Virus record (IMG/VR): IMGVR_UViG_643692022_000009
Strand: one strand, 5' to 3'
DNA: 17,418 nucleotides
From: a virus
Taxonomy: Duplodnaviria; Heunggongvirae; Uroviricota; Caudoviricetes
The position numbers and the translations under genes were made by a program. Every line of letters begins with the position of its first letter. Within the stretch, counting starts at the first letter, position 1. Positions 1 to 17,073 of the stretch are shown here, in pieces. The notes beneath the pieces are model-generated. The model was not told the DNA's origin. It did not search any database and was given only the letters and a program-made list of their open reading frames with translations.

Positions 1-792
1 ATGCCAATAAATGGAGTCAGTGCTGCGATGCGCGAACGGGTATCGCAGCAATTAAAAGAAATAGAACGTCGCTATGGCGTGAAAGTGCTGTACGCCTGCG
101 AATCGGGGAGTCGCGGTTGGGGATTTGCCTCTCCCGACAGCGACTACGATGTACGATTTTTGTATGTTCACCCGCTGGAATGGTATCTGCGGGTGGAGGC
201 GCCGCGCGATGTTATTGAGTTGCCTATTGACGACGAGTTAGATGTTTCAGGCTGGGAGTGGCGCAAGGCGCTGGGATTACTGAAAGGAGCGAATCCGACG
301 CTGATAGAATGGCTGGATTCTCCGGTGGTCTATCAACAAGATGAAGAAACGATAACGCCGCTTAAGGCAATGGTGCCGAAGTGGTTTTCTCCGCTGCGTG
401 CGCGTTGGCATTATTATTCGATGGCGCGGAAAAACTTTCGCGGTTATTTGCAGGGCGACGTAGTTCGGCTGAAAAAATACTTTTACGTGCTGCGACCACT
501 ACTGGCTGTGCGTTGGGTTGAAGCGGGAAAAGGCGTACCGCCAATGCGCTTTGCCGAGTTACTGGCGGGAAGCGAGCTTGATGCACCGTTACGTGCAGAA
601 ATAGACGAACTGCTGGAACGTAAACAGCGCGCGGGAGAAGCGGAATATGGTCCGCGCCGTCCTTTGTTACATGCGTTTATTCGTGTGGAACTGGCGCGTG
701 GGGAAATTCCACCAGTGTTACCGGACAGCAGGGACGGAGATGCCAGGGAACTGGATGGGTTGTTGTATCAAACAGTGATACGCCGGGCGTGA
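1..792 (+). CDS. Pol-beta superfamily nucleotidyltransferase (263 aa); N-terminal NTase fold plus C-terminal helical domain. The ORF begins exactly at the window edge, so the true start may lie upstream.
   Basis: Translation contains the hG[GS]-x(9-13)-Dh[DE]h signature of Pol-beta-type nucleotidyltransferases: 'LYACESGSRGWGFASPDSDYDVRF'. Uninterrupted 263-codon ORF with typical enterobacterial GC content. Confidence 0.6.
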   Translation: MPINGVSAAMRERVSQQLKEIERRYGVKVLYACESGSRGWGFASPDSDYDVRFLYVHPLEWYLRVEAPRDVIELPIDDELDVSGWEWRKALGLLKGANPTLIEWLDSPVVYQQDEETITPLKAMVPKWFSPLRARWHYYSMARKNFRGYLQGDVVRLKKYFYVLRPLLAVRWVEAGKGVPPMRFAELLAGSELDAPLRAEIDELLERKQRAGEAEYGPRRPLLHAFIRVELARGEIPPVLPDSRDGDARELDGLLYQTVIRRA

Positions 793-801
793 TGCCCGGC
801 G
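781..801. terminator. GC-rich hairpin (8-bp perfect stem CGCCGGGC / GCCCGGCG, 5-nt loop) between convergent genes; possible bidirectional terminator
   Basis: Perfect inverted repeat read directly at 781-788 and 794-801. The TGA stop of the plus-strand NTase lies in the loop. An A/T run follows at 809-822 but is not immediately adjacent, so the call is weak. Confidence 0.3.
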
Positions 802-821
802 CCTTCCAATAAAAAAGTTTT

Positions 822-1550
822 TTACCGAAGAGAATATTTGAGCTGTTTAAATTTGCTGCAGAGTGTGTTTTTTATGCTGAAACCTGGAACCCAGTGGAGA
901 GCTGTGTTCCAGGGACGAGGTGAACCGTGAAAACATACAATTTTTGCATCCGATGGCAATTCTCCGTTTGCTTTACCATCGTGTAAGTCAGGATTAAAGC
1001 CTATCATTTTAGGCGTCGCTATATTCGCTTTGTAACTGATAATTTGTCCTGGAAAAATATCCTGCCATCTTTCAGCGTCATGACATACTCTGCCGATAAA
1101 TCCCTGATCCCCATGATATGGCGGCTTTCTGGTTGAATTTATTTCAGTTTCAGGCGATCTCATAAACTCTTCCCAGACAAGTTTTTTGGCGTCCGCAGGA
1201 ATGAACATTATTCCAGTCGCAGGAGCAGCATTGGAACCATGCTGCGAGAAGTCGTTCAGTAATGTTACTTTTTTCATTTTAGTAAACTGTGTAATATCAC
1301 CGACGATTACAGTATCAATATCAATATAAAGTATATCTTCATTCCCGATAACAGGATGTTCGGGATTAAATAGCTCTAATTTTGCCCACCATCCTGGCCA
1401 ATTATACAGTAATGGAGTGGTTTGAACCCCTTTGATTTCTGAAGCATCCGTCATGCAAATGGAATTATACCCATCCAGCTGCTGGTGAAGCCATTGTGCA
1501 TGTTTAATAGTGAAATCCTTACTTTGTCTGAGAACTGAGACAATAAACAT
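822..1550 (-). CDS. GT8-family-like (GT-A fold) glycosyltransferase, 242 aa, encoded in an AT-rich block
   Basis: Translation has a DxD motif in GT8-like context ('ILYIDIDTVIVGDI') and a C-terminal 'CFHGSPRPW' resembling the H-x-x-G-x-x-KPW motif of GT8 enzymes (LgtC, WaaJ, glycogenin type). GC content is clearly lower than in the neighbouring tail genes. The ATG is preceded by AGGGA on the minus strand. Confidence 0.5.
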   Translation of the reverse strand: MFIVSVLRQSKDFTIKHAQWLHQQLDGYNSICMTDASEIKGVQTTPLLYNWPGWWAKLELFNPEHPVIGNEDILYIDIDTVIVGDITQFTKMKKVTLLNDFSQHGSNAAPATGIMFIPADAKKLVWEEFMRSPETEINSTRKPPYHGDQGFIGRVCHDAERWQDIFPGQIISYKANIATPKMIGFNPDLHDGKANGELPSDAKIVCFHGSPRPWNTALHWVPGFSIKNTLCSKFKQLKYSLR

Positions 1551-1591
1551 GTAATTTCCCTGTAGCGATTAGCAAAATATATAAGTAGTGA

Positions 1592-1619
1592 ACTATATTT
1601 GATGTAATTTACAATGCAA
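1592..1619 (-). promoter_or_regulatory. Candidate sigma70 promoter for the glycosyltransferase gene (-35 TTGCAT, 16-nt spacer, -10 TATAGT on the minus strand)
   Basis: On the minus strand: TTGCAT (plus 1614-1619), 16 nt, TATAGT (plus 1592-1597), about 40 nt upstream of the ATG at 1550, inside an AT-rich intergenic region. Confidence 0.35.
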
Positions 1620-1730
1620 TAGTTATTGTATTTAAATTCTTCTATATTCACTCAGTGGATGGTTAATATGGAAATATAATTACTGTGAATATTTATAAGC
1701 ATGTGCTTTGTTTGTGATGGAATATACAGC

Positions 1731-1758
1731 CTGATTAAAGCCGGGCTTGAAGCCCGGC
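1731..1758 (-). terminator. Candidate intrinsic terminator at the end of the tail operon (8-bp stem GCCGGGCT / AGCCCGGC, followed on the minus strand by UUUAAU)
   Basis: Perfect inverted repeat at 1740-1747 and 1751-1758, located 6 nt downstream of the stop of the 151-aa ORF (1764). The U-tract is short and interrupted. Confidence 0.35.
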
Positions 1759-1763
1759 GTAGT

Positions 1764-2219
1764 TTATGGTTGATATTGCCAACTGTTAACTAAAGCGTAC
1801 AAGTGGTTTGGGGAATAGCGCCAACTTTCTTTTAATTGCAGAAATTCGGCACAAAATTCGCTACAAAACAGGCGATCGCGCTGTTCTTTATTGCCGGTGA
1901 TAATTCCTAAGGCTCCACGCCAGTCGTATTTTTTGCCATCATGTTTACGGAAAAAAGCTTCTACATCCTGAAGGCTGACCTGGAGCGGCAGCATATCCCA
2001 CTTGTCTGGCGGTAAAGGCATTATCTTTCCACGAACGCCGCGATCGCGCAGAGAGGCGGAGTAACAAAGGTAACTCTTTTCTCCATGTGCTACGGCTAAT
2101 TCACAGTGGGAATAACTGCCGCGAGTGATTTTGCGTGTAAGCCAGTCAGCCAGTCTCGCAATAACCCGGTGCTCTGTTCGCCCTTTATAGCAAGCGAGCC
2201 AGACTGTAGTTTTACTCAT
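1764..2219 (-). CDS. Hypothetical 151-aa protein, translationally coupled to the tail-fibre assembly gene; possible permuted papain-like (LRAT / NlpC-P60-type) fold
   Basis: Its ATG overlaps the TGA of the upstream Tfa gene (ATGA, 2216-2219). Normal GC content. Contains 'YSHCELAVAHG' and a C-terminal 'FCSEFCAEF', reminiscent of the His...NCEHF arrangement of permuted NlpC/P60 enzymes. The fold assignment is from motif recall only. Confidence 0.6.
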   Translation of the reverse strand: MSKTTVWLACYKGRTEHRVIARLADWLTRKITRGSYSHCELAVAHGEKSYLCYSASLRDRGVRGKIMPLPPDKWDMLPLQVSLQDVEAFFRKHDGKKYDWRGALGIITGNKEQRDRLFCSEFCAEFLQLKESWRYSPNHLYALVNSWQYQP

Positions 2220-2923
2220 GGTTGCCAGCCTGTTGAATAATCGTAGTCGAGTACCGACTGAATATCGTCCAGAGCTTCCACCGCCGCGATATGGCGTTGG
2301 GCGTTGGCAAACAAGCGTATATCGTGATCCATTGTGACGGATTCAAACTGGGCAGCGATTTCGTTGGTTAACTCAGTCAGACCATTATTTTTAGTTTTCC
2401 ACATTAAACCTGGCGGAATTTTTTTCTCCGCTCCCATTTTTGTGAGTGAGAGTTGTTGGATGCGGCTGCTTGTATCACTGTGGAAGTAATTGTCGTTGAT
2501 GATGATGTAGTCGGTAGTGATGGAGTCGCGCAATGTTTTGATTTCGGCACATTTCGCCTGTTTAGCATCATCAATTGATGGCTGCCATTTTTCGCCATCC
2601 CAACGCTCAAAAGTACTGGTAGGGGAAATGATGGTGACAGTTTCAGGCAATTGACCCAATTTATTAATAATAATCTGGCTGCCATCAACTTTGTTATAAA
2701 CAGTTTGGCCTCGATGATCTTCAATAAGTTCCCATTTATTAATTGACCATATAGAAGTAAAACCTGCAATTTTTTGTGGTGGTGGTGTTAATGTGCAGTA
2801 ATTCGGTAGTCCAGTGTTTGGTGCTATATATACATTGGACTCACCAATAAATTCTTGTGTGTCTGGTGAAAAATTAAAAACAGATAAAATTTGTGCGTTA
2901 TCGGAAAAAGTAAAAGTATTCAT
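2216..2923 (-). CDS. Tail-fibre assembly protein (Tfa chaperone family), 235 aa
   Basis: N-terminal region ('[33 protein letters not shown]...[12 protein letters not shown]') matches the conserved N-domain of enterobacterial Tfa proteins. Its ATG overlaps the tail-fibre stop (ATGA, 2920-2923). The C-terminal half is divergent, as expected for a fibre-specific chaperone. Confidence 0.8.
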
Positions 2924-4500
2924 GCAAGCCTCACAATATAATTGAATGCAATGTTTTTAACAGTATTTTCTGTATTGCCAGTGTTATTGATGATAATTGA
3001 GTGATTATGTGTACCTAACACAATATTATGTGTATGACTTCCCAGTGCGATTGTATGTGCATGGGCGCCAATCGTAATACTATGATAATGACTACCAGCA
3101 GACTCAGTAGGTTCTCTGTAGTTCTCATCTGAATTGGGGCTGTTCCATAAAGACGGTCCATCTTTACCTTCTGCACCATCAGTTGGTATTCGGTGTGTAT
3201 GTTCTCCAGATGTGCTTGTATTTCTACTTCCATGATTAAATGAAGCTGTAGTTTTTGTTCCTAAGTCCGTAGAGGTAGATGTTATTGTCCCTAAATTGGT
3301 ACTAGAAATACTGCCCGTATGGTTATGTGATTTAACTCCATCCAGTTCAGTAGATAATATAGCGCGCCCACTGGATGGTTTTCCTTTAATTATCCATCCG
3401 CGCATATCAGGAATAACGCCAGATGGATATGCAATTGCCAGTTTGGGATAGGAGGTTTTATTAAATGTCTGACCAGTCATCAGAGCGTAGCCTGAAGGTA
3501 CAGAATCAGATGGCCAGGGTATAGGCATCCCTACAGGACAGCTTTCCGCAGCAATAGCCTTATCCATCGCTGCCTTAACCGCGTTCGGCGTTGCAGCTTC
3601 CGTCGTACTGGTGCTGTTGGTCGCATTATTAAGTTTCACGACCCCTTTTTGTGTCAGCGTACCGTCGGGGATACCTGTTATTTGCCCCCAGGCATGGGTA
3701 TGGCTGGACGGTGCCGCAGCAATAGCCTTGTCCATCGCTGCTTTAACAGCACTTGGCGTTGCAGCTTCCGTTGTACTGGTGCTATTTGTTGTGTTGTTAA
3801 GTTTAACGACTCCTTTCTGCGTCAGTGTACCATCAGGGATACCAGTAATCTGACTCCAGGCATGATTATGACTGGTGGCAGCTTTGCTATTTGCCAGGTC
3901 ATATGCCGTTTTTACCGCTTTTGGCGTGGCCGCTTTGGTTTCATCATCGCTATTAGTCGCATTACTCAGCTGCGTAAAACCTTTTTGTGTCAGCGTCGCA
4001 TCAGGATGATTTCGTGATTGCTGATGTGTTTTCAACGCGTCATCGACATATTCCCTGGTTGCCACAACGACTGAAGGGTCGATCAAAAGCGTCACCGCAT
4101 CTGCATTGGTGACTTCCATGACCGCGCGTATAACGATTTGCTTACTGGCCCCCGCAGGTAATCGTGGCTTATAGGTTTCAGGGATTTTTCCGATAGCGAC
4201 CAGCGTGCCGTCGGTATCCAGTAACCCAACTTCGCGTACATACCAGCCTCCGACTTGTTCGGGAATAATCGCTTCCGCGATAACCCAGGCCGGATTATCT
4301 GGCGCAATTTTTAACGTATTGAGCTGACCACGCCAGACCTCATGGACTACTTTAGTCTGACTTTCTGTCGGTTCGATATATTTACCATTACCGTCGCCAA
4401 CTACCATAGTTTGCAGACGGATCTGTTTTTGCTCCGTCAATGCAGAGGCAATTTTGGCTTTGCCTGCAGTAGTTAATATTGTAAAAAATTCACTTGCCAT
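2920..4500 (-). CDS. Tail fibre protein (P2 gpH / Mu S-like N-terminal anchor, central collar repeats, His-x-His C-terminal tip), 526 aa from the ATG at 4500
   Basis: From '[22 protein letters not shown]...VGDGNGK...HEVWRGQLN...[33 protein letters not shown]' the N-terminus closely parallels P2 gpH. GGAGGAATA lies just upstream of the ATG at 4498-4500, which overlaps the gpI stop (TAATG). The ORF track extends 42 codons further upstream to 4623, but that ATG lies inside gpI. The C-terminus carries HxH repeats. Confidence 0.85.
3548..4010. repeat. In-frame tandem coding repeats inside the tail-fibre gene: two near-identical 168-nt (56-aa) units plus a diverged third copy
   Basis: Units beginning 'gcagcaatagcct' at 3548 and 3716 (period 168 nt) encode 'HAW[S/G][44 protein letters not shown]'. 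A degenerate copy ('[37 protein letters not shown]') lies at about 3884-4010. These are the phage tail-fibre collar repeats. Confidence 0.85.
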
Positions 4501-5234
4501 TATTCCTCCGGATATACAGACATAATTTCGGTGCTCCAGTATCCTGTGCCGACCTTCATCGGTTGGGATTGTGTAAGGCGATCGGGTTGATAAGGTAGTA
4601 GTTGGATATATTCCTCCACACAATAACCCGTCGCTAAAAATATTCCTGATGACTGGCTGAGGCTTTCTGCAACAGGAGGCAATACTGTAATGACTTCCCC
4701 TCCTTGCATGGCGCTGCCAATAACTGGTATTGGGCTTCGATTAATAAGCCAAATAACAATGCTTTCCAGCTTTGAACGAACATTTTTATATTCATGAATT
4801 AATGTGATAAGTGCATTGAATTCATCTTCATTTAATCCTTTTTCCTCTAGTGTAATATTTACCTTAAAAAAATAAGCCCTTCCCCCATATTCAAACCATT
4901 CTGAAATAGTTCCGGGTAAGGAAAGTATTTCCAGCACCCGCCGTACCGCCCAAATTGTTCCTTTATATTTATGCAGTTCAATGGCTTGTTTAATTAACTC
5001 GCGCTTCTCCCGCTCATCGGTGGTAAATAACCAACCTTCCAGCCCCTGAACGTGAAATTGTTCTGCAAGGGCTGGTAATGCCGAAGCATCAACCAGGTCG
5101 ACCAGATAAACCATCAACGCCGTCAGATCGAGTTGGGCAAAACGCTCGGCGGCGATGTTTGCCAGAATCGAAAAACGCTCATCGCTGGCAAGCGGCGGCG
5201 GTGGCAGCAATTTATCCATCGCTGACTCCGGCAA
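4500..5234 (-). CDS. Baseplate / tail protein I (P2 gpI family)
   Basis: N-terminal '[13 protein letters not shown]' and overall pattern match gpI-family proteins; it sits between gpJ and the tail fibre as in P2 and R-pyocin clusters. The true start may be the internal Met (MDKLLPPP, 5219); both candidate starts overlap the gpJ 3' end. Confidence 0.8.
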
Positions 5235-6327
5235 TCGTGACGTCTATTGCAGTGCATTCCGCCCATTCATGCGCCTGCAAAATACGTTTTGTAGGCATAT
5301 TCAGCGCAACGTCATAGACGCCATCGACCTGTAACACTTTGATTATCTGGTTTGGCACAATGTCCTGCCCCAGATGTTTCTGCCGCTGTTGCGTCCAGAG
5401 GCTAATCGCTTTACGCGCCGCAGCCAGCGTTGTCTCCTGATCGGCGGTGGTAAACAGCGTTAGCTGAGCACGGATCTCATACGGCACTCGAAGAGCGCAT
5501 TTCGCACTCACTTTGTCGGTCAGCGGACGTTTTTTCTCCTTGCTAACCTCCTGTTCGATTTGCGCGAGCAGTTCTGTTCCCGGCAGTCCGTTCAGGGTTA
5601 GCGGGTAGATCTCCACGCAGCCTTCTGGCAATCCCTCGTCCGGCCCCAGTACTGCAACGTCAATAATCGACTGGCTAACAGAAAGCGTATGAAAGCGGTA
5701 TGCGCCATAGCTGCCCGCATTACTAAAGCTTTCTGGTGCCAGTTGGATACGCTGGCGCAATGCGTCATCGCTCTCCTCACCGCAGCCGCCCGTTGACGCA
5801 GTCAGGTTAGTTACGTTGATGTCATAATGACCCATCCTGTCGACCAGTGCGCTAATTTGTGCAGGCTGCCAGCCGTTGCCCTGTTCACCTGCTGCGAGGC
5901 TGGTGGCAGGAACGGCGATATGCAAACTCCTGGCCGGAAGCAGAACATCTTCATCGGTGGCGAACATCACGCTATCAGAGGCACTGGCCCGCGTCCCCTG
6001 GGGAATCAGGATATTGCTGGTATACGCACTGACGACCGAAAACTGCAACGTCGTTTTTGCAGGCTGCGCAGGCAAACGGTGAACGCCCACCAACTCCCCT
6101 AAATAATCCAGCATTGGCGCGCGGGAATACGCGACCAGGTTTTGTTTCGCCGCTTCCTGAATGGCGATGCGTACAAGGTTTTCACGATAGGCAAACAGGT
6201 CGATGAGCAACCGCTCAGCCTGTGCCGGATAGAGTTTTTTACCACTGGCATCTTCGTATTGCGCAATCATCTCACTGGTAATTTGCGCAGGATCGCGGTC
6301 AATAAAATTGGGTTCGGCTATCGCCAT
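5212..6327 (-). CDS. Baseplate assembly protein J (P2 gpJ / T4 gp6-like wedge), 371 aa
   Basis: Size and position (W-J-I order) with gpJ-like composition; start overlaps the gpW 3' end by 10 nt. Confidence 0.8.
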   Translation of the reverse strand: MAIAEPNFIDRDPAQITSEMIAQYEDASGKKLYPAQAERLLIDLFAYRENLVRIAIQEAAKQNLVAYSRAPMLDYLGELVGVHRLPAQPAKTTLQFSVVSAYTSNILIPQGTRASASDSVMFATDEDVLLPARSLHIAVPATSLAAGEQGNGWQPAQISALVDRMGHYDINVTNLTASTGGCGEESDDALRQRIQLAPESFSNAGSYGAYRFHTLSVSQSIIDVAVLGPDEGLPEGCVEIYPLTLNGLPGTELLAQIEQEVSKEKKRPLTDKVSAKCALRVPYEIRAQLTLFTTADQETTLAAARKAISLWTQQRQKHLGQDIVPNQIIKVLQVDGVYDVALNMPTKRILQAHEWAECTAIDVTIAGVSDG

Positions 6328-6677
6328 AACACCTCCGTTGAGTTGATAACGCCGTCAGCGGCGCGCCATTGCACACGTAACGTCAGATGTTCGCCGTCGA
6401 TTACTGGTGTCAGCTTCAGCAACCGACAGCGCGGTTCCCACTGGCGGATGGCTTCCACCGACTCCCGTACCACATGCGGGATTGCCCGCTCGATGGGGTA
6501 ATCGATGTAGTGCCACAAGTTGCTGCCAAACAGCGGTCTGTGGGGATCACTGCCGCGCGGTGTACGCAGAATGATGTGTATTGCCTGGTGAATATCATCC
6601 AGCCCGCAGACGTATTCTTCAGGCCGCTGCAAGGCCGGTTGCCAGTGCAGCGTTGAGGGTCGTGTTTTTGTGTTCAT
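6318..6677 (-). CDS. Baseplate wedge protein W (GPW / gp25 lysozyme-like family), 119 aa
   Basis: Size of about 120 aa immediately upstream of gpJ; sequence consistent with the GPW/gp25 family. Confidence 0.75.
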   Translation of the reverse strand: MNTKTRPSTLHWQPALQRPEEYVCGLDDIHQAIHIILRTPRGSDPHRPLFGSNLWHYIDYPIERAIPHVVRESVEAIRQWEPRCRLLKLTPVIDGEHLTLRVQWRAADGVINSTEVLWR

Positions 6678-6737
6678 GAGGGTATTTTCGCCCTGAACGG
6701 GCTGTGGCGATATTAAAGCGATTTAGAAAACTGATTG

Positions 6738-6770
6738 ATTAAAAAGAGAAAACCCGCCATCAGGCGGGTT
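6738..6770 (-). terminator. Strong intrinsic terminator between spike gene V and wedge gene W
   Basis: Minus-strand transcript reads AACCCGCC-UGAU-GGCGGGUU (perfect 8-bp GC-rich stem at plus 6751-6758 and 6763-6770) followed directly by UUCUCUUUUUAAUC. The hairpin starts 5 nt after the gpV stop (6776). Confidence 0.6.
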
Positions 6771-6775
6771 AAACG

Positions 6776-7477
6776 TCAGTGTGTATGGTGGTTGGAGTTG
6801 CCACCGCTGTCCTGCAATGCGCCGCTGGCCTGAACGTTGCCGATCACGTTGACATTGCCAGTTATCGTGGCGGCGTTACCGATGCCTCCACTTCCTGCCA
6901 TCCCGCCAAGCCAGGTGAGTTTTTTCATTACCGTGACGTTGCCAGTAAAGGTGCTCATGGGCGCATCTACCGTCACTGCTGCCGCTTTAACATCGACCTT
7001 AGTGGCGTCGATGCTGACATCGGTCGCTTTAACATCGACAGTATCGGAAGTCACGATGACCTGTTGGGCTTTAATCTCAACGTTGGGTGATGTCAGGCGG
7101 GTACTGTCGATAACCTCAATCACGATTTTCTCGATACCGCCGTTAATCGTCAGCTGGTGCGTGCTGCGGTCATATTCAAACGCTGCGCCATCAGAAAACT
7201 GGACGTAACGTTTATCGCGCGAGGCCACAGGCGCGGTGTCAACCGTAGAATAAACTGCGCCCAGCACCACGCCATCTTCACCGTTATTGTCCAGCAGAAC
7301 TTCCACTTGCTCGCCCATATCCGGTAGCCAGTAGTCTTTATTGTCCTGGGAATTGCGTTGAAGTACCGCAAGCCAGTTGCTCTTCAGATTGTCACACTCC
7401 GGGAGCGTGACCCGCACCCGAACGCTGGTTTCGTCAATATCGATGATAATCCCCGTTTGCCGGGTTACTCCTTTCAT
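6776..7477 (-). CDS. Baseplate spike / assembly protein V (P2 gpV family), 233 aa, with Gly-rich His-terminated C-terminus
   Basis: Position directly downstream of gpD and sequence character of gpV-family spikes; C-terminus '...GGMAGSGGIGNAATITGN...NSNHHTH' fits a metal-binding apex. AGGAGGAAATATG-type RBS upstream. Confidence 0.75.
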   Translation of the reverse strand: MKGVTRQTGIIIDIDETSVRVRVTLPECDNLKSNWLAVLQRNSQDNKDYWLPDMGEQVEVLLDNNGEDGVVLGAVYSTVDTAPVASRDKRYVQFSDGAAFEYDRSTHQLTINGGIEKIVIEVIDSTRLTSPNVEIKAQQVIVTSDTVDVKATDVSIDATKVDVKAAAVTVDAPMSTFTGNVTVMKKLTWLGGMAGSGGIGNAATITGNVNVIGNVQASGALQDSGGNSNHHTH

Positions 7478-7486
7478 ATTTCCTCC

Positions 7487-8527
7487 TTACTGGCTGGTCG
7501 CTGGCCCGCGCGACACGTCGATTTCAGTGGTATAGCCGCTGCGCACAAAACTGTGAGTAGATTTATCAATTAGCCATTGACCGGAAAGCACGCCAAAATC
7601 GGTTAGCTCGATTTTATTGCCCGCCGTCAGTTCCGGGCAGCCCATCATTGTGAGCGTTCCGGTTTGCTGATATTCGTTGTGGCTGTCGAGTGCAGCGTTG
7701 GCTTTTGCCTGTGCTGCGCCAACGTCCGTCGCCCGACTGTTCAGTTTTAGCGTGTCGGCACTGGTGCCGACTCCACGGGCAGACGGTTTTTGCTGGCTGT
7801 CGTGGGTGTAGATAACCAGTTCTTTTTTCTTACTATTTTGATGCTGTACGGTGGCGTTTTTGTAGATACGGTTAATGGTATCTTTGAAGGTGAAATGCGA
7901 AACGTCTTTGCGGTCGATCGTTTTTACCGGTGCCAGGCAGCGCAGCGTGGGTAAATGTGAAAAAATCAGCTCTTTTGTCGTCACTTTTACGGCATAACCA
8001 TATTCACTGGCCAGACGTTTGAGAAATCCGACATCGGTTTCACCATACTGCGTTACCCGGTCGATGGTGAGCGGCTCGATTTTGCCCACCAGTTTCAGAC
8101 CGTGCGTTTGGGCGATACGGCTGGCGATAGCCGAAAGCGTCGTTTCTTCAAAGCCCTGGCTGTTACGGGTGCGCAGCGCCTGATTGACGGAAGTGGCGAT
8201 GCCATCAATATTTACCGTGGAAGGTGGCGCTGAAATATCAATTTTATCAATAATATATTGACCACAATCGAGCAGTTTTTCCCCCTGATAACCCATATGC
8301 AGCGCCAGCGTATCGCCTTTGCCGGGATACCACTCTTTTATCCAGCGTCCATCGGTGTCATCCAGTGTAATCGCGATGGTATCCGACTCGTTTTTAATAC
8401 TGTCCTGGTAACTGATGCTGGTGACATAAGGCGTGATGTCATAAGTGATATCTTTATGCCCATACCAGAGGGTAAAAATGGGCGCGAGCGTGGCAAAGAC
8501 GCCGCCAGTTACGCTTATCTCAGCCAT
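7487..8527 (-). CDS. Tail protein D (P2 gpD late-control-D family baseplate hub), 346 aa
   Basis: Size and position (U-X-D order as in R-type pyocin and P2-like tails); gpD-like N-terminus. Confidence 0.8.
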   Translation of the reverse strand: MAEISVTGGVFATLAPIFTLWYGHKDITYDITPYVTSISYQDSIKNESDTIAITLDDTDGRWIKEWYPGKGDTLALHMGYQGEKLLDCGQYIIDKIDISAPPSTVNIDGIATSVNQALRTRNSQGFEETTLSAIASRIAQTHGLKLVGKIEPLTIDRVTQYGETDVGFLKRLASEYGYAVKVTTKELIFSHLPTLRCLAPVKTIDRKDVSHFTFKDTINRIYKNATVQHQNSKKKELVIYTHDSQQKPSARGVGTSADTLKLNSRATDVGAAQAKANAALDSHNEYQQTGTLTMMGCPELTAGNKIELTDFGVLSGQWLIDKSTHSFVRSGYTTEIDVSRGPATSQ

Positions 8528-8727
8528 GGTGGGAGCTCCGATACGGTTTTGTTGACGGAAATGACCGGAATGATGAGCTGAATACCGGAAGGTAGTACCG
8601 GGTAAATGGCGACATGTGGATTGGCGGCGATAATGCGTTCATAAGCCAGCGCATCGCCATAGTAATGCCATGCCAGATTATCCCAGCGTTCGCCGTCGGT
8701 GGTGATATGTTCAAGGTATCGCATCAC
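8515..8727 (-). CDS. Tail protein X (P2 gpX family, LysM-like), 70 aa
   Basis: A 70-aa protein with 'DGERWDNLAWHYYGD...IIAANPHVAIYPVLPSGIQLIIPVI' parallels gpX ('GDTLD...RYYG...AANP...LP.G..L.IP'). Start overlaps the gpU-like stop (ATGA). Confidence 0.75.
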   Translation of the reverse strand: MMRYLEHITTDGERWDNLAWHYYGDALAYERIIAANPHVAIYPVLPSGIQLIIPVISVNKTVSELPPWLR

Positions 8728-9677
8728 CAGCTCCTCGTAATGGTTGCGGCAGCAAACTGACTCACTGCTGGAGTGGTTCGTTGTACCGTTGTTCGTGCCT
8801 GATCAACCAACGTTGCTGCTTTATCAAACGTCGTTTCGGCGATGTCGCTGGTAATGTCATCGAAAAGCGCCTGAGCATGGTCAACCAGCGTACTGGCGTC
8901 ATTGGCGCAGTCCCGGATACCTGGCATGTTACCCAGTAAAGCTTTAATCTGCGCCGACAACGCTTTTGGGAGTCCTGCCAGCGTTTGCAGATCCATCGGC
9001 TGTATAAACAGGGTTTCGATGGCGTCGATTGTCTTTTTCAACGACGTAATTATCTTTTCACACTTTTCTTTTAACGCTTTGGCCTCTTTAATCAGTGCTT
9101 TCACTTTTGCCACTGTTTTTTTAATATCTTCAATGGATTGCGCCAGTTCATCGAGCATCTCTTTGGCTTTGCGCATACCTTCTTCAATGGCGTTCAATAT
9201 CTGATCTAACCAGGACTCCTCCTTATTCGGAAAATCGCTCGCCTTTTCCTCGATATTAGGCTCCTGGGTGGTAATTGCCGGGGGCAGCAGTGGGTTTTTC
9301 GGATCGCCGGTATACTCCTGGAGCGACATTGTTCCACTTTGGGCAATCACATTGCCCCAGGGATCGGTGTGCTGGTGAGTGGCGGTTAACTCTGTAATTA
9401 CAAACCAGCCGCGATAATCTCCGTTGCCAAACACCAGCGCCATTGCTTTGTGGGCGAGCATGGCTTCACGCAGTCGATTCAGCTCTGTTGTGGGTTGGCA
9501 AAACTGGCTGTGCAGGGAAAATTCCAGCGCCAGCATATCCAGCTTATCGCCAATAAACTGTACGCCAGGTTTGCCTTCAATACGGGCATGTGTGGCGTAA
9601 TCCACGCCCATTGTGCTCTTAAAGCCATCCCAGAACGTGACAACTTTAAATTCAATCTCTCCTAAAACGGCATACAT
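8724..9677 (-). CDS. gpU-like tail terminator domain fused to a roughly 190-aa C-terminal coiled-coil-rich extension (317 aa total)
   Basis: N-terminal 'MYAVLGEIEF...RIEGKPGVQFIGDKLDMLALEFSL' parallels P2 gpU ('MMLALG...F...RIGKRDAFQFLGVGEENITLAGVL'). The C-terminal half is K/E/A-rich with heptad-like periodicity. Start overlaps the tape-measure stop. Confidence 0.7.
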   Translation of the reverse strand: MYAVLGEIEFKVVTFWDGFKSTMGVDYATHARIEGKPGVQFIGDKLDMLALEFSLHSQFCQPTTELNRLREAMLAHKAMALVFGNGDYRGWFVITELTATHQHTDPWGNVIAQSGTMSLQEYTGDPKNPLLPPAITTQEPNIEEKASDFPNKEESWLDQILNAIEEGMRKAKEMLDELAQSIEDIKKTVAKVKALIKEAKALKEKCEKIITSLKKTIDAIETLFIQPMDLQTLAGLPKALSAQIKALLGNMPGIRDCANDASTLVDHAQALFDDITSDIAETTFDKAATLVDQARTTVQRTTPAVSQFAAATITRSW

Positions 9678-12052
9678 CAGGCATACCCCCGGCGCTGCTG
9701 CTGCGCCATTACATCGTTAATCATTCTTTCCAGTTCGCGTTTACTCATCGTCAACACGTTCTGAATCTCTTTAGTGGTGTTTTGTCCGTTACCCTGCACG
9801 GTAATTTGTGGCGAAAAATTCACCTGAACTTTTCCTGAGGAACGGGAAGGTAGCGTCGCCGCTTTGGTTACGGATTTACCAGGTAAAGAGGCCGATGCTT
9901 GTTTGGCGGCTGTATTTTTTGCCGCTGATGCCGATGGTAGCGTTGTCGTTTTACTGGATGGCGCGAGTTGTTTCCCCACTGGAGGCGTTAAAATCGCACC
10001 GGCAACGCCTGGAACAACGGTCGTGGAGGAGACGGATGCGGTATTACTCGTGCTTGTAACAGCCGTAGCCGATCCTTCTGTACTAATACCCATCGTGGTT
10101 TTTAGCCAGTCCGGTAAGGCGTTTTTGATCTGGTCAATAATGCCTTTCAGAGCGGGGAAGGCATTTATTATGCCGTCAACCAGACTGCCCAGAAGATTGC
10201 TGCCGAACTCGCTAAAACTTGCAGGCATCTCGACACCAAACCAATTCATCACACTGGAAAAGGCGCTATAGAACAAAGCCAGCGGCGACCAGTCGAGAAT
10301 CAACCGGCAAATCCCTGCAATACCGCCGTCAAAGGCCGTGGTGATACGTTGCCAGATGGTCGAAAAGAACCTGGAGATAGGCTCCCAGTTGCGATAAATC
10401 AGATAAGCAGCACCCGCAATTGCGGTGATGACCAGGCCAATGGGATTCATCAATAAAACCCTACCCAACCAGAAGACGGTCTGACCTACCTGTTTCAGTG
10501 CGCCAATCAGGCCACGACCAAGCAGTTGCATTAGCCATTTTGCGCCGCCACCCAATGACTTAACCGCTGATAGCATCTTACTTGCCCCGCCTGTGAGCGC
10601 CAGACTTGCCTTGACTTTCAGGAAGATATCGACCAGACGAATAAACGGCGAGGTGATGAGGTTCGCGCCCAGCTTTAAAACATTCAGCGCACCGTTAAAC
10701 AGCCAAATCGCCCCGACGATTTTCGCGATGTTTTGCACCAGTGTCGGGTGCTCACGTAGCCAGGTGCTGAACTGACGAATAACCGGCGTAAGGCTTTGTG
10801 CCAGCTCGCCAATCAGCGGCATTAATTGCAAGCCAATGCTGAGCCATAAATCATTTAACGCCAGCTGTAACGCTTTAGTCTGTTCAATGGGCGAGGCCAT
10901 TTGCGCAGAAAAGTCGGCATCAATCAGATTCTTGCTGGTGGCTTGCATGGCAGAGGTTTTTAACTGGCGATATTCCTCCATATTCGCCAGCATAGGTGCC
11001 AGGAATTCCACCGTTTGCGCATCGCCGAACATTTCGCCCAGATTAAATTGCGTCACCATCGATTGCAGCGCATTGCTGCGAGCAGATAAATCTTCAATCT
11101 GCATAGTTCGTTTGAAGGTGTCGAGGATCGCCGGATTCATCTTCTCAAGCTGCATTTGTACGATATGAGTCATGGCTTCGCTAACACCCATACCGTTTTG
11201 CTGATGTTCAAGCAGAGAGCCTTGCAGATCGACGCCCTGGCTGGCGAACCAGTTATCGGTCTTTTTCGAAAAGGTGGTTTGCAGAAAGTGGTCGAAATTC
11301 TCCGCCGCCGCACTGGCGCTGGCTCCGTTTTTCATGGCGATCTGCATGGCGGCAGTCAGTTCAGCCATACCTTCCAGACCCTGAGCGCCGGTTTTACCTG
11401 CAAATTTGTCTATCCACAGCGTTTGCTCGGCAACGGCAGGCCCACCGCTTTTGCTAATGCCGTACATCATGTTTTGCGCGACGTGGAAATTTTCTGGCGC
11501 AATATTCAGTCGATCATGGGTTGCGAGCGCGGCATTCGCCCATGTTTCAGCACTTTCGCGCGTGGCGGTGGCAGCTTTGGCGATCTCCGGCATATAACGG
11601 TTGAGATCCTGTATCGACGACAAATTGCCTTCGATCAGCGTTTGGGCTGCGTTCTGTAAGGTGGTCTGATGCTGGTTAAAATCCATGCTCCAGTCGCGCA
11701 GATTAAGGCTGAGCGTCTCGCGAGTTGTATCATTCATCCCACCTTTGGTCGCCATATTGACCATGTTGTCCTGGAACTCATACGGCAACTTCCAGTCGGG
11801 GGCTTCAACATTGAATACTTTGCTAAATTGCCCGGCAAATGTGTGGGTTTTCTCCATCAGATTAGCGCGGCTGCGGCTATTTTCCTCCAGGCGGAGAGCG
11901 GAATCGGCAAGCCGCTGCGTTAGTTTGATAACTGTCGCTTGCTGAGTAGAGAGAGCTAACAATGTTCTGGCGTTGAGTGAGCCGTAACGGGCTATTGCCT
12001 GCGTCAACGTCTCATTACGCGCCTGAAGCTGGGTAATAATATCGTTGGCCAA
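9677..12052 (-). CDS. Tail tape measure protein, 791 aa
   Basis: Long alpha-helical protein with central hydrophobic segments and an S/T/A-rich low-complexity C-terminal region, located between the chaperone gene and gpU as in all P2/Mu-type tails. Confidence 0.85.
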   Translation of the reverse strand: MANDIITQLQARNETLTQAIARYGSLNARTLLALSTQQATVIKLTQRLADSALRLEENSRSRANLMEKTHTFAGQFSKVFNVEAPDWKLPYEFQDNMVNMATKGGMNDTTRETLSLNLRDWSMDFNQHQTTLQNAAQTLIEGNLSSIQDLNRYMPEIAKAATATRESAETWANAALATHDRLNIAPENFHVAQNMMYGISKSGGPAVAEQTLWIDKFAGKTGAQGLEGMAELTAAMQIAMKNGASASAAAENFDHFLQTTFSKKTDNWFASQGVDLQGSLLEHQQNGMGVSEAMTHIVQMQLEKMNPAILDTFKRTMQIEDLSARSNALQSMVTQFNLGEMFGDAQTVEFLAPMLANMEEYRQLKTSAMQATSKNLIDADFSAQMASPIEQTKALQLALNDLWLSIGLQLMPLIGELAQSLTPVIRQFSTWLREHPTLVQNIAKIVGAIWLFNGALNVLKLGANLITSPFIRLVDIFLKVKASLALTGGASKMLSAVKSLGGGAKWLMQLLGRGLIGALKQVGQTVFWLGRVLLMNPIGLVITAIAGAAYLIYRNWEPISRFFSTIWQRITTAFDGGIAGICRLILDWSPLALFYSAFSSVMNWFGVEMPASFSEFGSNLLGSLVDGIINAFPALKGIIDQIKNALPDWLKTTMGISTEGSATAVTSTSNTASVSSTTVVPGVAGAILTPPVGKQLAPSSKTTTLPSASAAKNTAAKQASASLPGKSVTKAATLPSRSSGKVQVNFSPQITVQGNGQNTTKEIQNVLTMSKRELERMINDVMAQQQRRGYA

Positions 12053-12141
12053 AATTGTTTCTCTTATAGATTGGTGATGGCCCGCTGGTTAGTTTTCTGA
12101 AAAATGGGCTGGGAAGAAATAAACCTGGCGGGCTTTGAAGA

Positions 12142-12166
12142 ACTCGCAGACATCAGGTCTGCGAGT
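12142..12166. other. Perfect 10-bp inverted repeat (ACTCGCAGAC / GTCTGCGAGT, 5-nt loop) in the chaperone to tape-measure gap
   Basis: Read directly from sequence. On the minus strand the hairpin spans the stop codon of an open +1-frame extension of the chaperone gene and is followed by UUCUUCAAAG (a poor U-tract). Possible attenuator or frameshift-associated structure. Confidence 0.4.
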
Positions 12167-12240
12167 CATATTCGATCTTTATTTGAGCGCTGGCTTCATC
12201 CAGCCAGTTGCTAAAGTCATCTATGGTGAGCGCGTCTATC

Positions 12241-12558
12241 TCACTGGGCGGAAAGCGAAACCATCTCGCCAGTAACGCCATCGCTTGCCATAACAGTGGC
12301 GGATTCTGTAGCCACGCTAAGCATGGATTGAAATCGTTTCTGCAATGCCTGGTAATCCAGCAAATCCATTTCAGCTAAATCTTCTGGCACCAGTCCGGTC
12401 ATTGCCGCCATTAGCGGTTCATCCCATTCTTCTGGTTTTTCGCTGATCCGGCGCGCGTTGCGCATATCTTTTACTTTCAGGCGACGTAATTGCAGCGTGT
12501 CGATATTATTTCCTGCTGCCGACGTAAATGGAAACTGCAAGATATAATGTTCTTTCAT
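12241..12558 (-). CDS. Tail assembly chaperone (P2 gpE-like), 105 aa
   Basis: Small acidic protein in the conserved slot between the tube and tape-measure genes; sequence pattern parallels gpE. A 189-nt gap follows before the tape-measure ATG, where an E-prime-type extension would be expected. Confidence 0.65.
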   Translation of the reverse strand: MKEHYILQFPFTSAAGNNIDTLQLRRLKVKDMRNARRISEKPEEWDEPLMAAMTGLVPEDLAEMDLLDYQALQKRFQSMLSVATESATVMASDGVTGEMVSLSAQ

Positions 12559-12608
12559 TTTGTGTCCTTATTTATTTTGCAAAGTTCGGGGCCGTAGCCC
12601 CGAATAAC

Positions 12609-13133
12609 TTAGCCACCGATGTTATTGCGATAGGTACTTAATTGATCCACACCATTAACCCGGAAAATATTGGCCATATAATCAAGTTCAAGCAGCGTTT
12701 CACCATCAACTACTTGTTTAATATAAGTGCAACCAAAGGCGCTGCTGAATTCCGGGTTTTCATTCTGTTTAAATGTGCCCAGTGGATTCTTTTTAAACAT
12801 CACGGTTAAATGTGTCACTAACGCTAATTGATTCGCTTTCCCCTGGGAGTTATAGCAATCAATACTGGAGCGGCACTGTAATGCCACCGCCTGCCACGGG
12901 TTTGCCGTTTTACGCATGACGTCCTGATAAAAGGAGTTCCATTTAATTTCGCCCTCCAGTTTATCGAAACCTGCCGGGAGTTCGATTTTGCCGACCATAC
13001 CCAGTGCCTTATGCTCTTGCATAATTAAACTGACATCCGGCAATTTAATTTCGGTTGCACGACCTAAAAGGTTATTACCATCGAGATAAATATTGGCGTT
13101 GGTAATACGGTTAATTTGAATTTTTCCAGCCAT
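12609..13133 (-). CDS. Major tail tube protein (P2 gpFII family), 174 aa
   Basis: Size and position immediately downstream of the sheath gene (start overlaps the sheath stop by 1 nt); tube-family sequence character. Confidence 0.85.
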   Translation of the reverse strand: MAGKIQINRITNANIYLDGNNLLGRATEIKLPDVSLIMQEHKALGMVGKIELPAGFDKLEGEIKWNSFYQDVMRKTANPWQAVALQCRSSIDCYNSQGKANQLALVTHLTVMFKKNPLGTFKQNENPEFSSAFGCTYIKQVVDGETLLELDYMANIFRVNGVDQLSTYRNNIGG

Positions 13134-14563
13134 TAGCTATTGCTCTCCAGAGAGACTAAATATTCAGAAGTAATTTCAGTTTCAAACGTCAGACGTTCCA
13201 GCGGCGGTGGCGGGGTGAATTTATAGCTCAGCAATAAATGCCCGGCGCTGAGTTCGGTCGGTGAATTTCGCGCCGGATCGTACCAGCACTCAAAGCCAAG
13301 CAGTGCGCCGTCGGCAATCAGCTTACGGCCCCAGGTATTTACCGATTCGGTCAGGGCATCAATCAGCGCCTGATTAATCGGCATATCAATATACTGCTGA
13401 CTGAAATAACGGATTGACTCATTAATTACATCGCCTGTCCGGCGGGCGTTTTCAAAGTTACGCATATGGGTCACGGTAGGCCATGCCGCTGTGCGGTTGC
13501 CCCACAAGCGCAGACCAGAGCCGTAACTATTGAAAATAGTGGTAATGCCGTTTTCGTTGAGCTGATTCACTTCGCTTTGAGGATCATCAATCATTGCGGA
13601 AAGCGAACGTTCAATACCGGTAATACCCTGAATTTCCTGGTTTGAGTTGCTCCACCAGAAACCTTTTTCGAGGTCTACTTTGGCACGTAGCCCGGCAGCG
13701 CGCGAAGAGAGCGGTTCGAGAACTTCCTGGTTAGTGATGCCATCGTAAACTTTGACGTGTGGGTAACATAAACGCGCACGATCAGAGCTGGTGTTGAAGT
13801 TGATAGCCCCTTGCGAACCGCGTCCTGCCAATACCTGCTGGAATGTCGTCCCAATCGGGGCATCAATGTAGGTAATCGCACCAAGTTTTTCCGCTTGTGC
13901 AATCAGCTCGGTAGTTACTGATTTTTGCGTACAGAACACGGGAGCAAGCAGGATTTTGGCGTAGAAACCATACAGGTTATAGGTGTCCTGTAGCAGTTTC
14001 ATCCCCGTGCGATCGCCTGCGGTATTAACGGCACCGATAATATCGGCTGCGGTGACCTTTGTAGGGTCGCACCAGGAATAATAGGCGCAAACTTTCGCAC
14101 CAGGAGGAATGTCGGCTCCTGTACGGGTAATTATGCCTGTTTGTTCATCTACGCTAAATGCTGCGGTGTTATAGGTTGATGAATTTGATGAAGAGGGCTT
14201 TAGAACCACGTTACGCACATTGCGGTGAGCGAGTTTCGCCTGGTTGTTAGCGTCAAAAGTGATACTCTCATTGCTGATGTTGGAGCCATGTTTTGCCGGA
14301 TCCAGCACGTTAATCACCACCACCGTACCGGCACCGTGGTCATAAATCGCCTTCAGTGCCTGCGGGATCGTAAAGTTAGCCTGAGTCGAACCAAACTGCG
14401 CAGCATCGCTTTCAGAAAGGCATAATGTTGGTTTATTTACCGGACCACAGGGGGCCGTACCGATTAAAGCGATGACGGCGGATTTTACCGCTTTAACCGG
14501 ACGCGGGCCGGTTTCAATTTCAATGGTTTCTACACCGTGCAGATAATTAGCTGCCATGTACAA
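13133..14563 (-). CDS. Contractile tail sheath protein (P2 gpFI / Mu L family), 476 aa
   Basis: N-terminus 'YLHGVETIEIETGPRPVKAVKSAVIALIGTAP' is the conserved sheath start (compare P2 FI 'YHHGVQVLEINEGTR...'). Size is typical of sheath proteins. Confidence 0.9.
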   Translation of the reverse strand: MYMAANYLHGVETIEIETGPRPVKAVKSAVIALIGTAPCGPVNKPTLCLSESDAAQFGSTQANFTIPQALKAIYDHGAGTVVVINVLDPAKHGSNISNESITFDANNQAKLAHRNVRNVVLKPSSSNSSTYNTAAFSVDEQTGIITRTGADIPPGAKVCAYYSWCDPTKVTAADIIGAVNTAGDRTGMKLLQDTYNLYGFYAKILLAPVFCTQKSVTTELIAQAEKLGAITYIDAPIGTTFQQVLAGRGSQGAINFNTSSDRARLCYPHVKVYDGITNQEVLEPLSSRAAGLRAKVDLEKGFWWSNSNQEIQGITGIERSLSAMIDDPQSEVNQLNENGITTIFNSYGSGLRLWGNRTAAWPTVTHMRNFENARRTGDVINESIRYFSQQYIDMPINQALIDALTESVNTWGRKLIADGALLGFECWYDPARNSPTELSAGHLLLSYKFTPPPPLERLTFETEITSEYLVSLESNS

Positions 14564-16248: not shown

Positions 16249-16536
16249 CTATAGCCCTAACGCGACGGAAAGGCAGACGGCAGCAACGATGATAGCCCGG
16301 CGAATCATTGCCGCCGCGCAGCAACGCGGTTCCTTCCAGGGGCAAAAAGAGTCAGGCCGTGCCCAGGGGAACAAACTGCGATCGAGCCAGTATCCCAGCA
16401 CCGCGGAAAGCGAAACCAGGCTTAGTTTATAAATGACGACCGGGATTTGTGCTGAAGAGGTCCAGCCGATCACGACAAACAGCGCGACGGAAGCGACCAG
16501 CCAGCCGGAAAGCCGGGGAAATGTGATTTTTTTCAT
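16249..16536 (-). CDS. Small membrane protein with three hydrophobic segments, 95 aa; holin candidate
   Basis: GGAGAT lies 5 nt upstream of the ATG. Hydrophobic stretches 'WLVASVALFVVIGW', 'IPVVIYKLSLVSLSAVLGYWL' and 'AIIVAAVCLSVALGL'; stop lies 2 nt before the endolysin ATG. It lacks the charged C-terminal tail typical of holins, so confidence is moderate. Confidence 0.5.
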   Translation of the reverse strand: MKKITFPRLSGWLVASVALFVVIGWTSSAQIPVVIYKLSLVSLSAVLGYWLDRSLFPWARPDSFCPWKEPRCCAAAMIRRAIIVAAVCLSVALGL

Positions 16537-16832
16537 ACGATATCTCCTGATAAATGAGCGTTTAGTGTCGTCAGAACCCGCCAGTGAAGAATGAAAAAAG
16601 CTTTAATAAATAAGTTTAAAAAATAGATTCTCTATAAATGAACATGCCCGCTAATAAATCCACCCGTCAATAAAAGAGCAAAAGGTGACCTGGCGAACAA
16701 GTGCATCATTATGCAGGGGAAAGATGATGGTGGATCGTAGGAATATTCGATAGTTATTTGATTTTTAAAGTTTGTTTAAGAAAGTCAGCGACTGTGAGGG
16801 AAACGATCTTTTTACACTACAAGTAAAAATAA

Positions 16833-16852
16833 TACTGTATGTGTATACAGTA
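16833..16852. promoter_or_regulatory. LexA (SOS) box, TACTGTATGTGTATACAGTA
   Basis: Matches the E. coli LexA consensus TACTGTATATATATACAGTA (CTGT-N8-ACAG) at 18 of 20 positions, differing only at two central, weakly conserved positions. It lies in the divergent AT-rich intergenic region between the Mor-like gene and the lysis/tail operon. Confidence 0.65.
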
Positions 16853-16873
16853 TCGTGTAAAATGATACACCTG

Positions 16874-16904
16874 TTGACAAGAAACATAACGCAAACAATA
16901 TATC
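16874..16904 (+). promoter_or_regulatory. Candidate sigma70 promoter reading toward the Mor-like gene (-35 TTGACA, -10 AATATA / TATATC at 17-19 nt spacing)
   Basis: Consensus TTGACA at 16874-16879, 22 nt downstream of the LexA box, with A/T-rich -10 candidates at 16897-16904. A second dyad (GTGTA-N6-TACAC, 16856-16871) lies between the LexA box and the -35. Confidence 0.35.
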
Positions 16905-17073
16905 TATTTCATGAATTTATGGCGTTCATTAATATTAAAAATTTATATTTTTGTTAATTGTTTATTTGTTTGTTGAATGTATTGAGTAGCAGTAATGACA
17001 ACTGCTTAGCGTATATCCGTGGTTTTACACGCATCGGGTCTTATTCAGGATGCAAGATATATGGAGATGAAAA

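Follow-up and report, generated by a model that had tools for sequence, protein, structure and literature searches.

The window analysed here, the whole 17,418-nucleotide (nt) stretch of IMG/VR record IMGVR_UViG_643692022_000009 (Caudoviricetes), carries a glycosyltransferase gene of the P1 PmgQ/phrog_1962 family at the tail-fibre end of a tail-only gene cluster. As read from its sequence and predicted fold, the product is a soluble cytoplasmic glycosyltransferase (GT) with a GT-A fold, DxD- and metal-dependent, of a GT8-like family; judged by its fold relatives, it probably retains anomeric configuration. The gene lies in a 938-bp low-GC insertion, is intact, and its sequence is kept by purifying selection. 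On present evidence we regard it as an ordinary-looking moron of the lysogenic-conversion type on an unusual carrier, the tail-only cluster. The best overall explanation, which includes modification of the lipopolysaccharide (LPS) core or of another surface glycan, has in our estimate a somewhat better than even chance of being correct.

A GT8-like glycosyltransferase with a GT-A fold

The open reading frame (ORF) of 242 amino acids (aa) carries both motifs that had led the first-pass annotation to a GT8-type enzyme, YIDIDTVIV (residues 75-83) and FHGSPRPW (residues 207-214). The gene and the motifs that align with GT8 enzymes are the following.

822..1550, minus strand: gene for the GT8-like glycosyltransferase of the P1 PmgQ/phrog_1962 family, 242 aa, ATG start
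1380..1382, minus strand: K57, invariant, within the WPGWWxKxE motif; aligns to the conserved Lys of Gat1 (YTKLHIF)
1314..1322, minus strand: the DxD motif, D77-I-D79, with a predicted role in Mn2+ and nucleotide-sugar binding; glycogenin and Gat1 have their DxD at the aligned position
1101..1112, minus strand: G-D148-Q149-G motif; aligns to the GDQG of glycogenin, which contains Asp162
909..929, minus strand: H208-G-S-P-R-P-W214, counterpart of the GT8 HxxGxxKPW motif with a predicted metal-binding His; aligns to HFLGQTKPW of glycogenin

Searches with the single 242-aa sequence returned no useful match in Pfam (E<=0.1), NCBIfam or the Protein Data Bank (PDB), and matches came only from family profiles and from structure. 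Against phrog_1962 ('glycosyltransferase') the match is full-length, residues 1-233 covering profile positions 1-230 of 230 at E 9.3e-99, and P1 PmgQ and P7 HdmD share 36% identity with the protein across 93% of its length. At E<=1e-30 this large family has 2113 representatives, and neither Pfam nor NCBIfam has a model for it. In an alignment of 73 homologues (A1), K57, D77 and G209 are invariant, and W51-P-G-W-W55, D79, D148, S172, K174, H208, P211 and R212 are at least 90% conserved. We take D148 and Q149 to be the equivalents of D188 and Q189 of LgtC.

Matches of the family profile in the PDB are to glycosyltransferases only, almost all of them GT8 enzymes (Gat1, 1e-7; glycogenin, 2e-6; GlyE). 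A Foldseek search with the AlphaFold (AF2) model of the protein (pLDDT 96, pTM 0.93) gave LgtC as the top PDB match (5.7e-8), and the top viral-model matches were phage proteins designated 'GT family 8' and fusions to MptE-like domains. The comparison with GT8 structures proposed by the first-pass annotation came out in its favour, with Gat1, glycogenin and LgtC all matched and the catalytic motifs aligned. The class assignment has to be worded with more care: the GT-A fold, the DxD, the D-Q pair and the His motif agree with GT8, but the Pfam GT8 model (PF01501) gave sub-threshold matches only, in 12 of the 73 relatives, with a best E of 0.0046. Given that no match lies above the threshold, we call the protein GT8-like rather than a filed GT8 member. 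No transmembrane segment was found in it (highest 19-residue mean hydropathy 0.89).

A low-GC cassette between two hairpin copies

The gene lies between the last gene of the tail operon, encoding a 151-aa protein, and a chromosomal gene for an RlaP-family nucleotidyltransferase. Three features define the insertion.

802..1739, no strand: inserted low-GC DNA of 938 bp with the GT gene and its upstream region, GC 0.374; absent from related loci
782-801, no strand: left copy of a 20-nt hairpin repeat with the RlaP stop codon in its loop (direct-repeat family D1, -18.4 kcal/mol)
1740-1759, no strand: right copy of the 20-nt hairpin repeat, immediately past the 151-aa gene (from direct repeat and folding)

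The GC-rich hairpins that the first-pass annotation saw on both sides of the gene are a stable pair: the 20-mer GCCGGGCGTGATGCCCGGCG at 782-801 has a second direct copy at 1740-1759 (90% identity), with folding energies of -16.7 to -18.4 kcal/mol (z about -4), and the two copies bracket the 938 bp. Escherichia coli S10 has a single hairpin, GCCGGGCGTGAAGCCCGGCG, with the RlaP stop codon in its loop, and 14 nt separate the stops of the RlaP and 151-aa genes. In eight more empty sites (IMG/VR loci from at least two lineages) RlaP abuts the 151-aa gene, and seven of the eight have a single hairpin. Escherichia albertii represents the occupied form, and its RlaP-side hairpin copy is identical to the single copy of E. 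coli. At one GT-less locus (L106), similarity to the window extends to position 1740, and no separate aligned RlaP-side piece was recovered. The cassette was not found in 5426 complete E. coli genomes at megablast sensitivity; the end of the 151-aa gene with the hairpin was found in 46 of them. A megablast search of window positions 1-5300 against phage genomes gave no match.

The empty single-hairpin sites of E. coli and other species bear out the earlier view of the gene as an independently acquired insertion. Like a moron cassette, the block is present or absent between syntenic elements, with defined junctions, and deviates in base composition. GC is 0.405 in the ORF, 0.374 in the inserted block as a whole and 0.27 in the upstream intergenic region (1551-1739), compared with 0.503 in the tail genes (4500-14563) and 0.534 in the RlaP gene. 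The low-GC block described in the first-pass annotation is therefore real (0.374 vs 0.50-0.53 in its neighbours), but low GC is not special to the GT gene: the fibre tip and fibre-assembly genes are likewise lowish, at 0.41-0.46. Lowered GC is common for exchanged receptor-binding modules. The simplest history read from these junctions is an ancestor with one hairpin, followed by insertion and hairpin duplication in the Escherichia fergusonii / E. albertii lineage; loss of the cassette by deletion through the repeats is possible in individual lineages.

Once acquired, the gene has been retained under purifying selection. Comparison with E. albertii gives a dN/dS of 0.11, and comparison with homologues of 77-78% identity gives 0.05-0.07. 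The exact 242-aa protein occurs in 261 index blocks of an assembly collection, and the six listed places with it are all syntenic chromosomal loci, including that of E. fergusonii ATCC 35469. Truncated acetyltransferase or split GT copies in two related loci (L129, L136) could be read to mean that the gene is a decaying, non-functional remnant of an old prophage moron. With an intact ORF that keeps all catalytic residues, a dN/dS of about 0.1 and an identical protein in that many index blocks, we consider this extremely unlikely.

Candidate expression signals

The upstream intergenic region contains two signals on the coding strand.

1592..1619, minus strand: candidate sigma-70-like promoter TTGCAT-N16-TATAGT, read off the sequence
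1556..1561, minus strand: Shine-Dalgarno-like AGGGAA, read off the sequence, with the ATG 5 nt downstream

The first-pass annotation had the gene transcribed from this promoter. Its hexamers, TTGCAT at 1619..1614 and TATAGT at 1597..1592, and its 16-nt spacer are present, but the -35 is weak by consensus; because it agrees at three of six positions, the site falls below the threshold of the consensus-scan list. By itself, TTGCAT-16-TATAGT is at chance level for AT-rich DNA. E. albertii has retained the two hexamers at the 16-nt distance, and at the locus of a 77%-identical homologue TTGCAA-16-TATAGT is kept while the spacer and flanks have diverged. A CAGGG(A/G)AA ribosome-site motif is kept across the three closest loci. 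Conservation over three diverged loci makes the promoter a real candidate, and its activity is plausible.

Homologues in LPS-core operons

Genomic contexts were taken from 80 genome loci, further contigs and phage records, and the neighbouring genes were clustered. Chromosomal homologues of 42-52% identity lie inside LPS-core (waa) operons. In Raoultella and Klebsiella spp., a 43-45% identical homologue is encoded 7 nt upstream of the O-antigen ligase gene (Wzy_C), with hldD-rfaF-rfaC-WaaZ-like and rfaQ-GT4-GT4 as its two flanks. The GT-waaL pair was found at ten loci in several genera, including Rosenbergiella, Erwinia, Morganella and a genome labelled Martelella. The closest non-phage relative is a 52% identical homologue in Pectobacterium, in an operon with the order GT4 / WaaP-family kinase / sulfatase-family protein / classical GT8 / MptE-like / homologue / GT25. 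The waa-cluster homologues are all named 'hypothetical' or 'glycosyltransferase' in their sources. The link to the LPS core that the first-pass annotation had drawn from GT8 enzymes in general thus holds for homologues of this gene, which sit within waa operons and adjoin waaL. In a neighbour-joining tree, the tail-fibre-adjacent clade of the window groups with phiNP and the Pectobacterium waa gene and is sister to the waaL-linked clade, with P1 PmgQ basal.

Other close homologues lie at prophage ends by tail-fibre assembly genes (Citrobacter, Klebsiella aerogenes, phage Chlobot). They are often convergent to these genes, an orientation that implies independent transcription; one prophage-end homologue is co-directional with the fibre-assembly gene.

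Several family members are fused to MptE-like domains (P0158, P0238) or to methyltransferases (P0201, P0263, P0058). The MptE-like domain is the domain of WaaZ-type Kdo transferases, and also that of the Maf enzymes, O-glycosyltransferases that attach ulosonic acids to flagellin (10.1101/2020.06.03.131540, PMC11339370). Based on the MptE-like fusions and this WaaZ- and Maf-type domain, the family would work in glycan pathways that involve ulosonic acids. This gives a first functional handle on a large family that includes P1 PmgQ, namely the assembly of LPS-core or ulosonic-acid-linked glycans. In P1 (L103, 3144-5702) and phiNP (L090, 5463-6648), pmgO and the gene beside the GT homologue, respectively, are both labelled 'alpha-2,3-sialyltransferase', and the pairing of a sialyl/Kdo-transferase-like enzyme with the GT extends to classical phages.

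Copies in head-tail operons and at unrelated loci

In prophages of Halomonas, Azonexus, Pseudomaricurvus and alpha-proteobacteria, the family gene is part of the head-tail operon directly after the major capsid gene, usually accompanied by MptE-like and methyltransferase genes. In P1, pmgQ belongs to the late operon, two genes after pmgO (annotated as sialyltransferase-like). The first-pass annotation had not foreseen these contexts. In the distant prophages the family shares head-tail operons with Maf/WaaZ-like enzymes, so glycosylation of the virion stays the main rival of the LPS-core explanation: the enzyme would act in the cytoplasm while particles assemble, modify their tail fibre or some other protein of the particle and so change stability, binding or antigenicity, by analogy with phage-encoded virion glycosylation. 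Consistent with this, the window gene follows the fibre, assembly and 151-aa genes directly and in the same direction, MptE-like neighbours and fusions with the domain of flagellin-modifying Maf enzymes are frequent in the family, and protein is the acceptor of several GT8 enzymes (glycogenin, Gat1, GlyE). Nevertheless, L106 has the same fibre-tip and tail-fibre assembly (TFA) clusters and lacks the gene, the closest homologues often converge on the late operon and have a candidate promoter of their own, and the nearest non-phage relatives are LPS-core genes. The P1 gene is also dispensable, as pmgQ is non-essential for lytic growth (PMC10695390). We therefore rate modification of the particle as rather improbable for the window gene.

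Capsid-adjacent copies, which also occur in Dechloromonas, were seen at L099 (6001-6600) and at L018, L020-L025, L029, L033, L039, L045 and L066, together with MptE-like (Maf/WaaZ-like), FkbM or other methyltransferase genes. This gene set may be a virion-glycosylation module of proteobacterial prophages, and we flag it as such.

Orphan copies amid unrelated chromosomal genes were found in Shimwellia, Yokenella and Salmonella. These, together with an insertion site that is a generic intergenic hairpin, would fit an enzyme whose acceptor is unrelated to the tail cluster (a host protein, a capsule or enterobacterial common antigen (ECA) intermediate, a small molecule or DNA) and whose gene hitch-hikes at a recombination-prone hairpin. 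No defence-system model was matched either: PADLOC returned nothing for the GT, the 151-aa protein, RlaP, or the GT4 and acetyltransferase found at related loci. On the other hand, the fibre end of a tail module carries the gene in several independent elements, and its chromosomal homologues are tightly coupled to waaL and waa genes. Modification of DNA would have no obvious role here, because the tail-only cluster packages no DNA. An unrelated acceptor seems to us quite improbable.

A proposed role at the cell surface

We propose that the 938-bp low-GC cassette entered the E. fergusonii / E. albertii lineage at the hairpin that separates the RlaP gene of the chromosome from the last tail-cluster gene, and that the hairpin was duplicated meanwhile. 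The GT gene would be transcribed from its own weak sigma-70 promoter, with some transcripts possibly reading through from the tail operon. The enzyme could work at the inner face of the cytoplasmic membrane and move a sugar from a nucleotide-sugar donor onto the core oligosaccharide of LPS or onto a different lipid-linked glycan of the surface, and the resulting surface change would alter the structure read by tail fibres and phages. That the acceptor is a surface glycan at all we hold to be modestly favoured.

Several observations weigh against this explanation. The window gene is outside any waa operon, and neither a WaaL nor an MptE-like partner is encoded nearby; residence in such an operon or coupling to waaL is a property of the homologues. 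The distant members after the capsid gene and in the P1 late operon fit virion or late functions better. Transcription units are uncertain, because the -35 is poor (three of six positions) and neither hairpin has a good U-tract on the minus (coding) strand. The C-terminal cationic helix of the protein (muH 0.30, net charge +5) was considered as a membrane anchor and dropped, given that it is moderately amphipathic and is missing from the waa-cluster homologues. The Raoultella and Klebsiella homologue occupies the wabJ position of Klebsiella sp. M5al, in which disruptions of wabJ and waaL are listed as removing O-antigen (PMC13412088); its putative equation with 'wabJ' is one of gene order.

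If the enzyme does edit the LPS core, a conserved enterobacterial tail cluster would have a swappable surface-editing slot beside its receptor-binding genes. Such a slot would bear on how tailocin producers escape self-killing and on the prediction of phage and tailocin host range in Escherichia.

The tail cluster and its chromosomal neighbours

The window contains a minus-strand, tail-only cluster that encodes a holin, a lytic transglycosylase, an Rz-like protein, sheath, tube, tape measure, baseplate and fibre proteins. The features that bear on its nature and on the site of insertion are listed below.

17074-17418, plus strand: Mor-like regulator gene at the far right end of the cluster
16835..16850, no strand: LexA-box-like CTGTATGTGTATACAG, a perfect CTGT-N8-ACAG; sole match in the window, with 0.13 expected by chance
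2920-4623, minus strand: tail fibre gene, for which later starts are possible (Pfam Phage_tail_fib/Phage_fiber_2/Collar)
2216-2923, minus strand: tail-fibre assembly gene (Pfam Caudo_TAP/DUF4376)
1764..2219, minus strand: gene for the 151-aa protein, last of the tail operon and outside the cassette; 95% identical in E. coli S10
1..792, plus strand: gene for the RlaP-family nucleotidyltransferase, a chromosomal, convergent flank (Pfam PF10127, E 9e-96)

No head, packaging or integrase genes were identified in the cluster. Its content of tail, lysis and regulator genes only, the lack of head, packaging and integrase genes and the fixed chromosomal locus together give it the architecture of an R-type tailocin. 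It looks like an undescribed enterobacterial R-type tailocin candidate. The LexA-box-like site lies in the AT-rich divergent region (16536-17074) between the Mor-like regulator and the holin/tail operon, which suggests that the tail-only cluster is under SOS control; a window scan gave no second LexA box near the GT promoter.

RlaP neighbours the cluster in E. coli as well. In E. coli S10 (L098), where the full cluster was inspected, it is flanked by lysC and slipin-RlaP-yjbD-rluF, and the same chromosomal site (lysC ... slipin-RlaP-yjbD-rluF) is found in E. fergusonii and E. albertii. The published 'tailocin' of E. coli ST131 is at a different locus. RlaP and slipin (Band_7) genes form a conserved pair beside the cluster, also upstream in L082-L087, and gave no PADLOC match; in E. 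albertii the pair is apparently deleted or pseudogenised.

Homologues of the 151-aa protein occur in P2-like phages between the fibre-assembly and sheath genes, the Z/fun moron position of P2. The family profile has a weak match to the permuted papain-like cysteine peptidase 3kw0 (E 0.007). The protein has an SHCE motif with invariant His and Ser, the Cys39 of this motif being conserved at 90% or more, and FCSEFCA is a further conserved motif; its PHROG label ('enoyl-CoA hydratase-like') looks wrong. Its single-sequence AF2 model, with a pLDDT of 43, is of no use.

Cargo at the same position and the fibre tip

The first-pass annotation had suggested looking for different cargo at this position in homologous loci, and such cargo was found. 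Among 65 IMG/VR loci fetched with the 151-aa protein as query, RlaP follows the 151-aa gene directly in nine, counting the window's own type, and eight of these are empty. E. fergusonii has the GT alone. Eight loci encode a 201-aa hexapeptide-repeat acetyltransferase together with a GT of 70-81% identity, several copies being decayed, and two (L108, L114) have a GT4 glycosyltransferase directly after the 151-aa gene. Because these cargo types recur there, the end of the fibre module is a hot spot for glycan-modifying enzymes.

In a sister lineage of the cluster, the 201-aa hexapeptide-repeat acyl/acetyltransferase gene separates the 151-aa gene from the GT8-like gene; it is found at 4648-5253 of L134, and is truncated in L124, L127, L129 and L137. 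In some E. fergusonii (L084-L087, ~14.6-15.8 kb), a GT4 gene ('GT4-conflict' Pfam family) lies between duplicated yjbD/rluF fragments, ~4 kb from the GT8-like gene; in one E. albertii it is split (L093, 8355-9497). This is a second insertion of a glycan enzyme, again with its target site duplicated.

If the GT protected its producer from the particles of its own cluster, as the first-pass annotation had hypothesised, the simplest prediction is that cargo and fibre tip vary together. Fibre-tip clusters were cross-tabulated against cargo at 37 loci, where the tips are highly mosaic (14 tip clusters), and the prediction fails, since the same tip occurs with and without the gene. Tip cluster 0 has the GT in seven loci and empty sites in L106 and L115, tip cluster 1 occurs both with acetyltransferase plus GT and with empty sites, and six or more tip clusters co-occur with the GT. 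L106 (tip cluster 0, TFA cluster 0) has ~87% nucleotide identity over the fibre module and no GT gene; as clusters of this type exist without it, the GT is not required for building that fibre. Cargo type follows the lineage of the 151-aa gene, fibre-tip type follows neither, and cargo probably tracks the host lineage.

Tailocin producers are generally self-resistant through their LPS, and no tailocin immunity genes are known (bioRxiv 10.1101/2020.05.27.113977), which is the gap that a self-immunity gene would fill. Strict self-immunity would have the enzyme mask or strip off the LPS receptor to which the cluster's own fibre binds, which would spare the producer and its kin. The LPS-core evidence (waa operons, coupling to waaL) applies to it equally, two or more diverged tail-cluster lineages have the gene physically linked to the fibre end, and differing glycan-modifying cargo recurs at one spot. 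However, many clusters of the family carry no cargo, killing particles from the cluster are themselves a prediction, and the lack of co-variation between tip and cargo leaves the strict form unsupported; we consider it unlikely. Protection through a conserved secondary receptor is possible. A broader version, in which the GT and the alternative cargo make up a cluster-linked self-protection module that remodels the LPS core against own or kin particles, is in our view rather unlikely. It would matter if true, since no tailocin immunity genes are known, and the gene would then be the first of an immunity type described for an R-type tailocin.

Comparison with known systems

The enzyme has the GT-A fold, DxD, Lys, D-Q pair and His-...-(K/R)-P-W in common with GT8 enzymes such as LgtC, glycogenin, Gat1, GlyE and the WaaI/J/O type. 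It differs from them in its low identity (11-15%), in being shorter (242 aa) and in having its own WPGWWxKxE motif. P1 PmgQ and P7 HdmD belong to the same family and are already labelled 'glycosyltransferase' by RefSeq and PHROGs. In contrast to P1 pmgQ, which follows pmgO in the late operon, the window gene is a solitary cassette with a candidate promoter of its own in a tail-only cluster. The LPS-core genes of Raoultella, Klebsiella and Pectobacterium (42-52% identical) have WaaZ-like or MptE-like and WaaL partners, which the window gene lacks, and their products do not have the C-terminal helix of the window protein.

GtrABC and Oac are prophage seroconversion modules beside tail-fibre or tailspike genes. 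Like the GT cassette, they are accessory, low in GC and located at the receptor-binding end; independent transcription, for which the cassette has a candidate promoter, would be common to both, and the GT is likewise predicted to alter LPS. Unlike the GT, GtrABC is a trio of membrane proteins (the flippase GtrA, the GT2 bactoprenol transferase GtrB and the GT-C enzyme GtrC), and Oac is an integral-membrane acetyltransferase. The GT is the product of one gene, a soluble GT-A/GT8-like enzyme without a transmembrane segment and with a hydropathy maximum of 0.89. The carriers differ as well: GtrABC and Oac are carried by complete prophages, the GT by a tail-only cluster.

With R-type tailocins (R-pyocin, carotovoricin), the cluster has in common a regulator, a LexA-box-like site, holin and lysis genes, and the set of genes from sheath to fibre. 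Linked immunity or LPS-modifying genes are unreported for known tailocin clusters, whereas the cluster in this window carries the GT.

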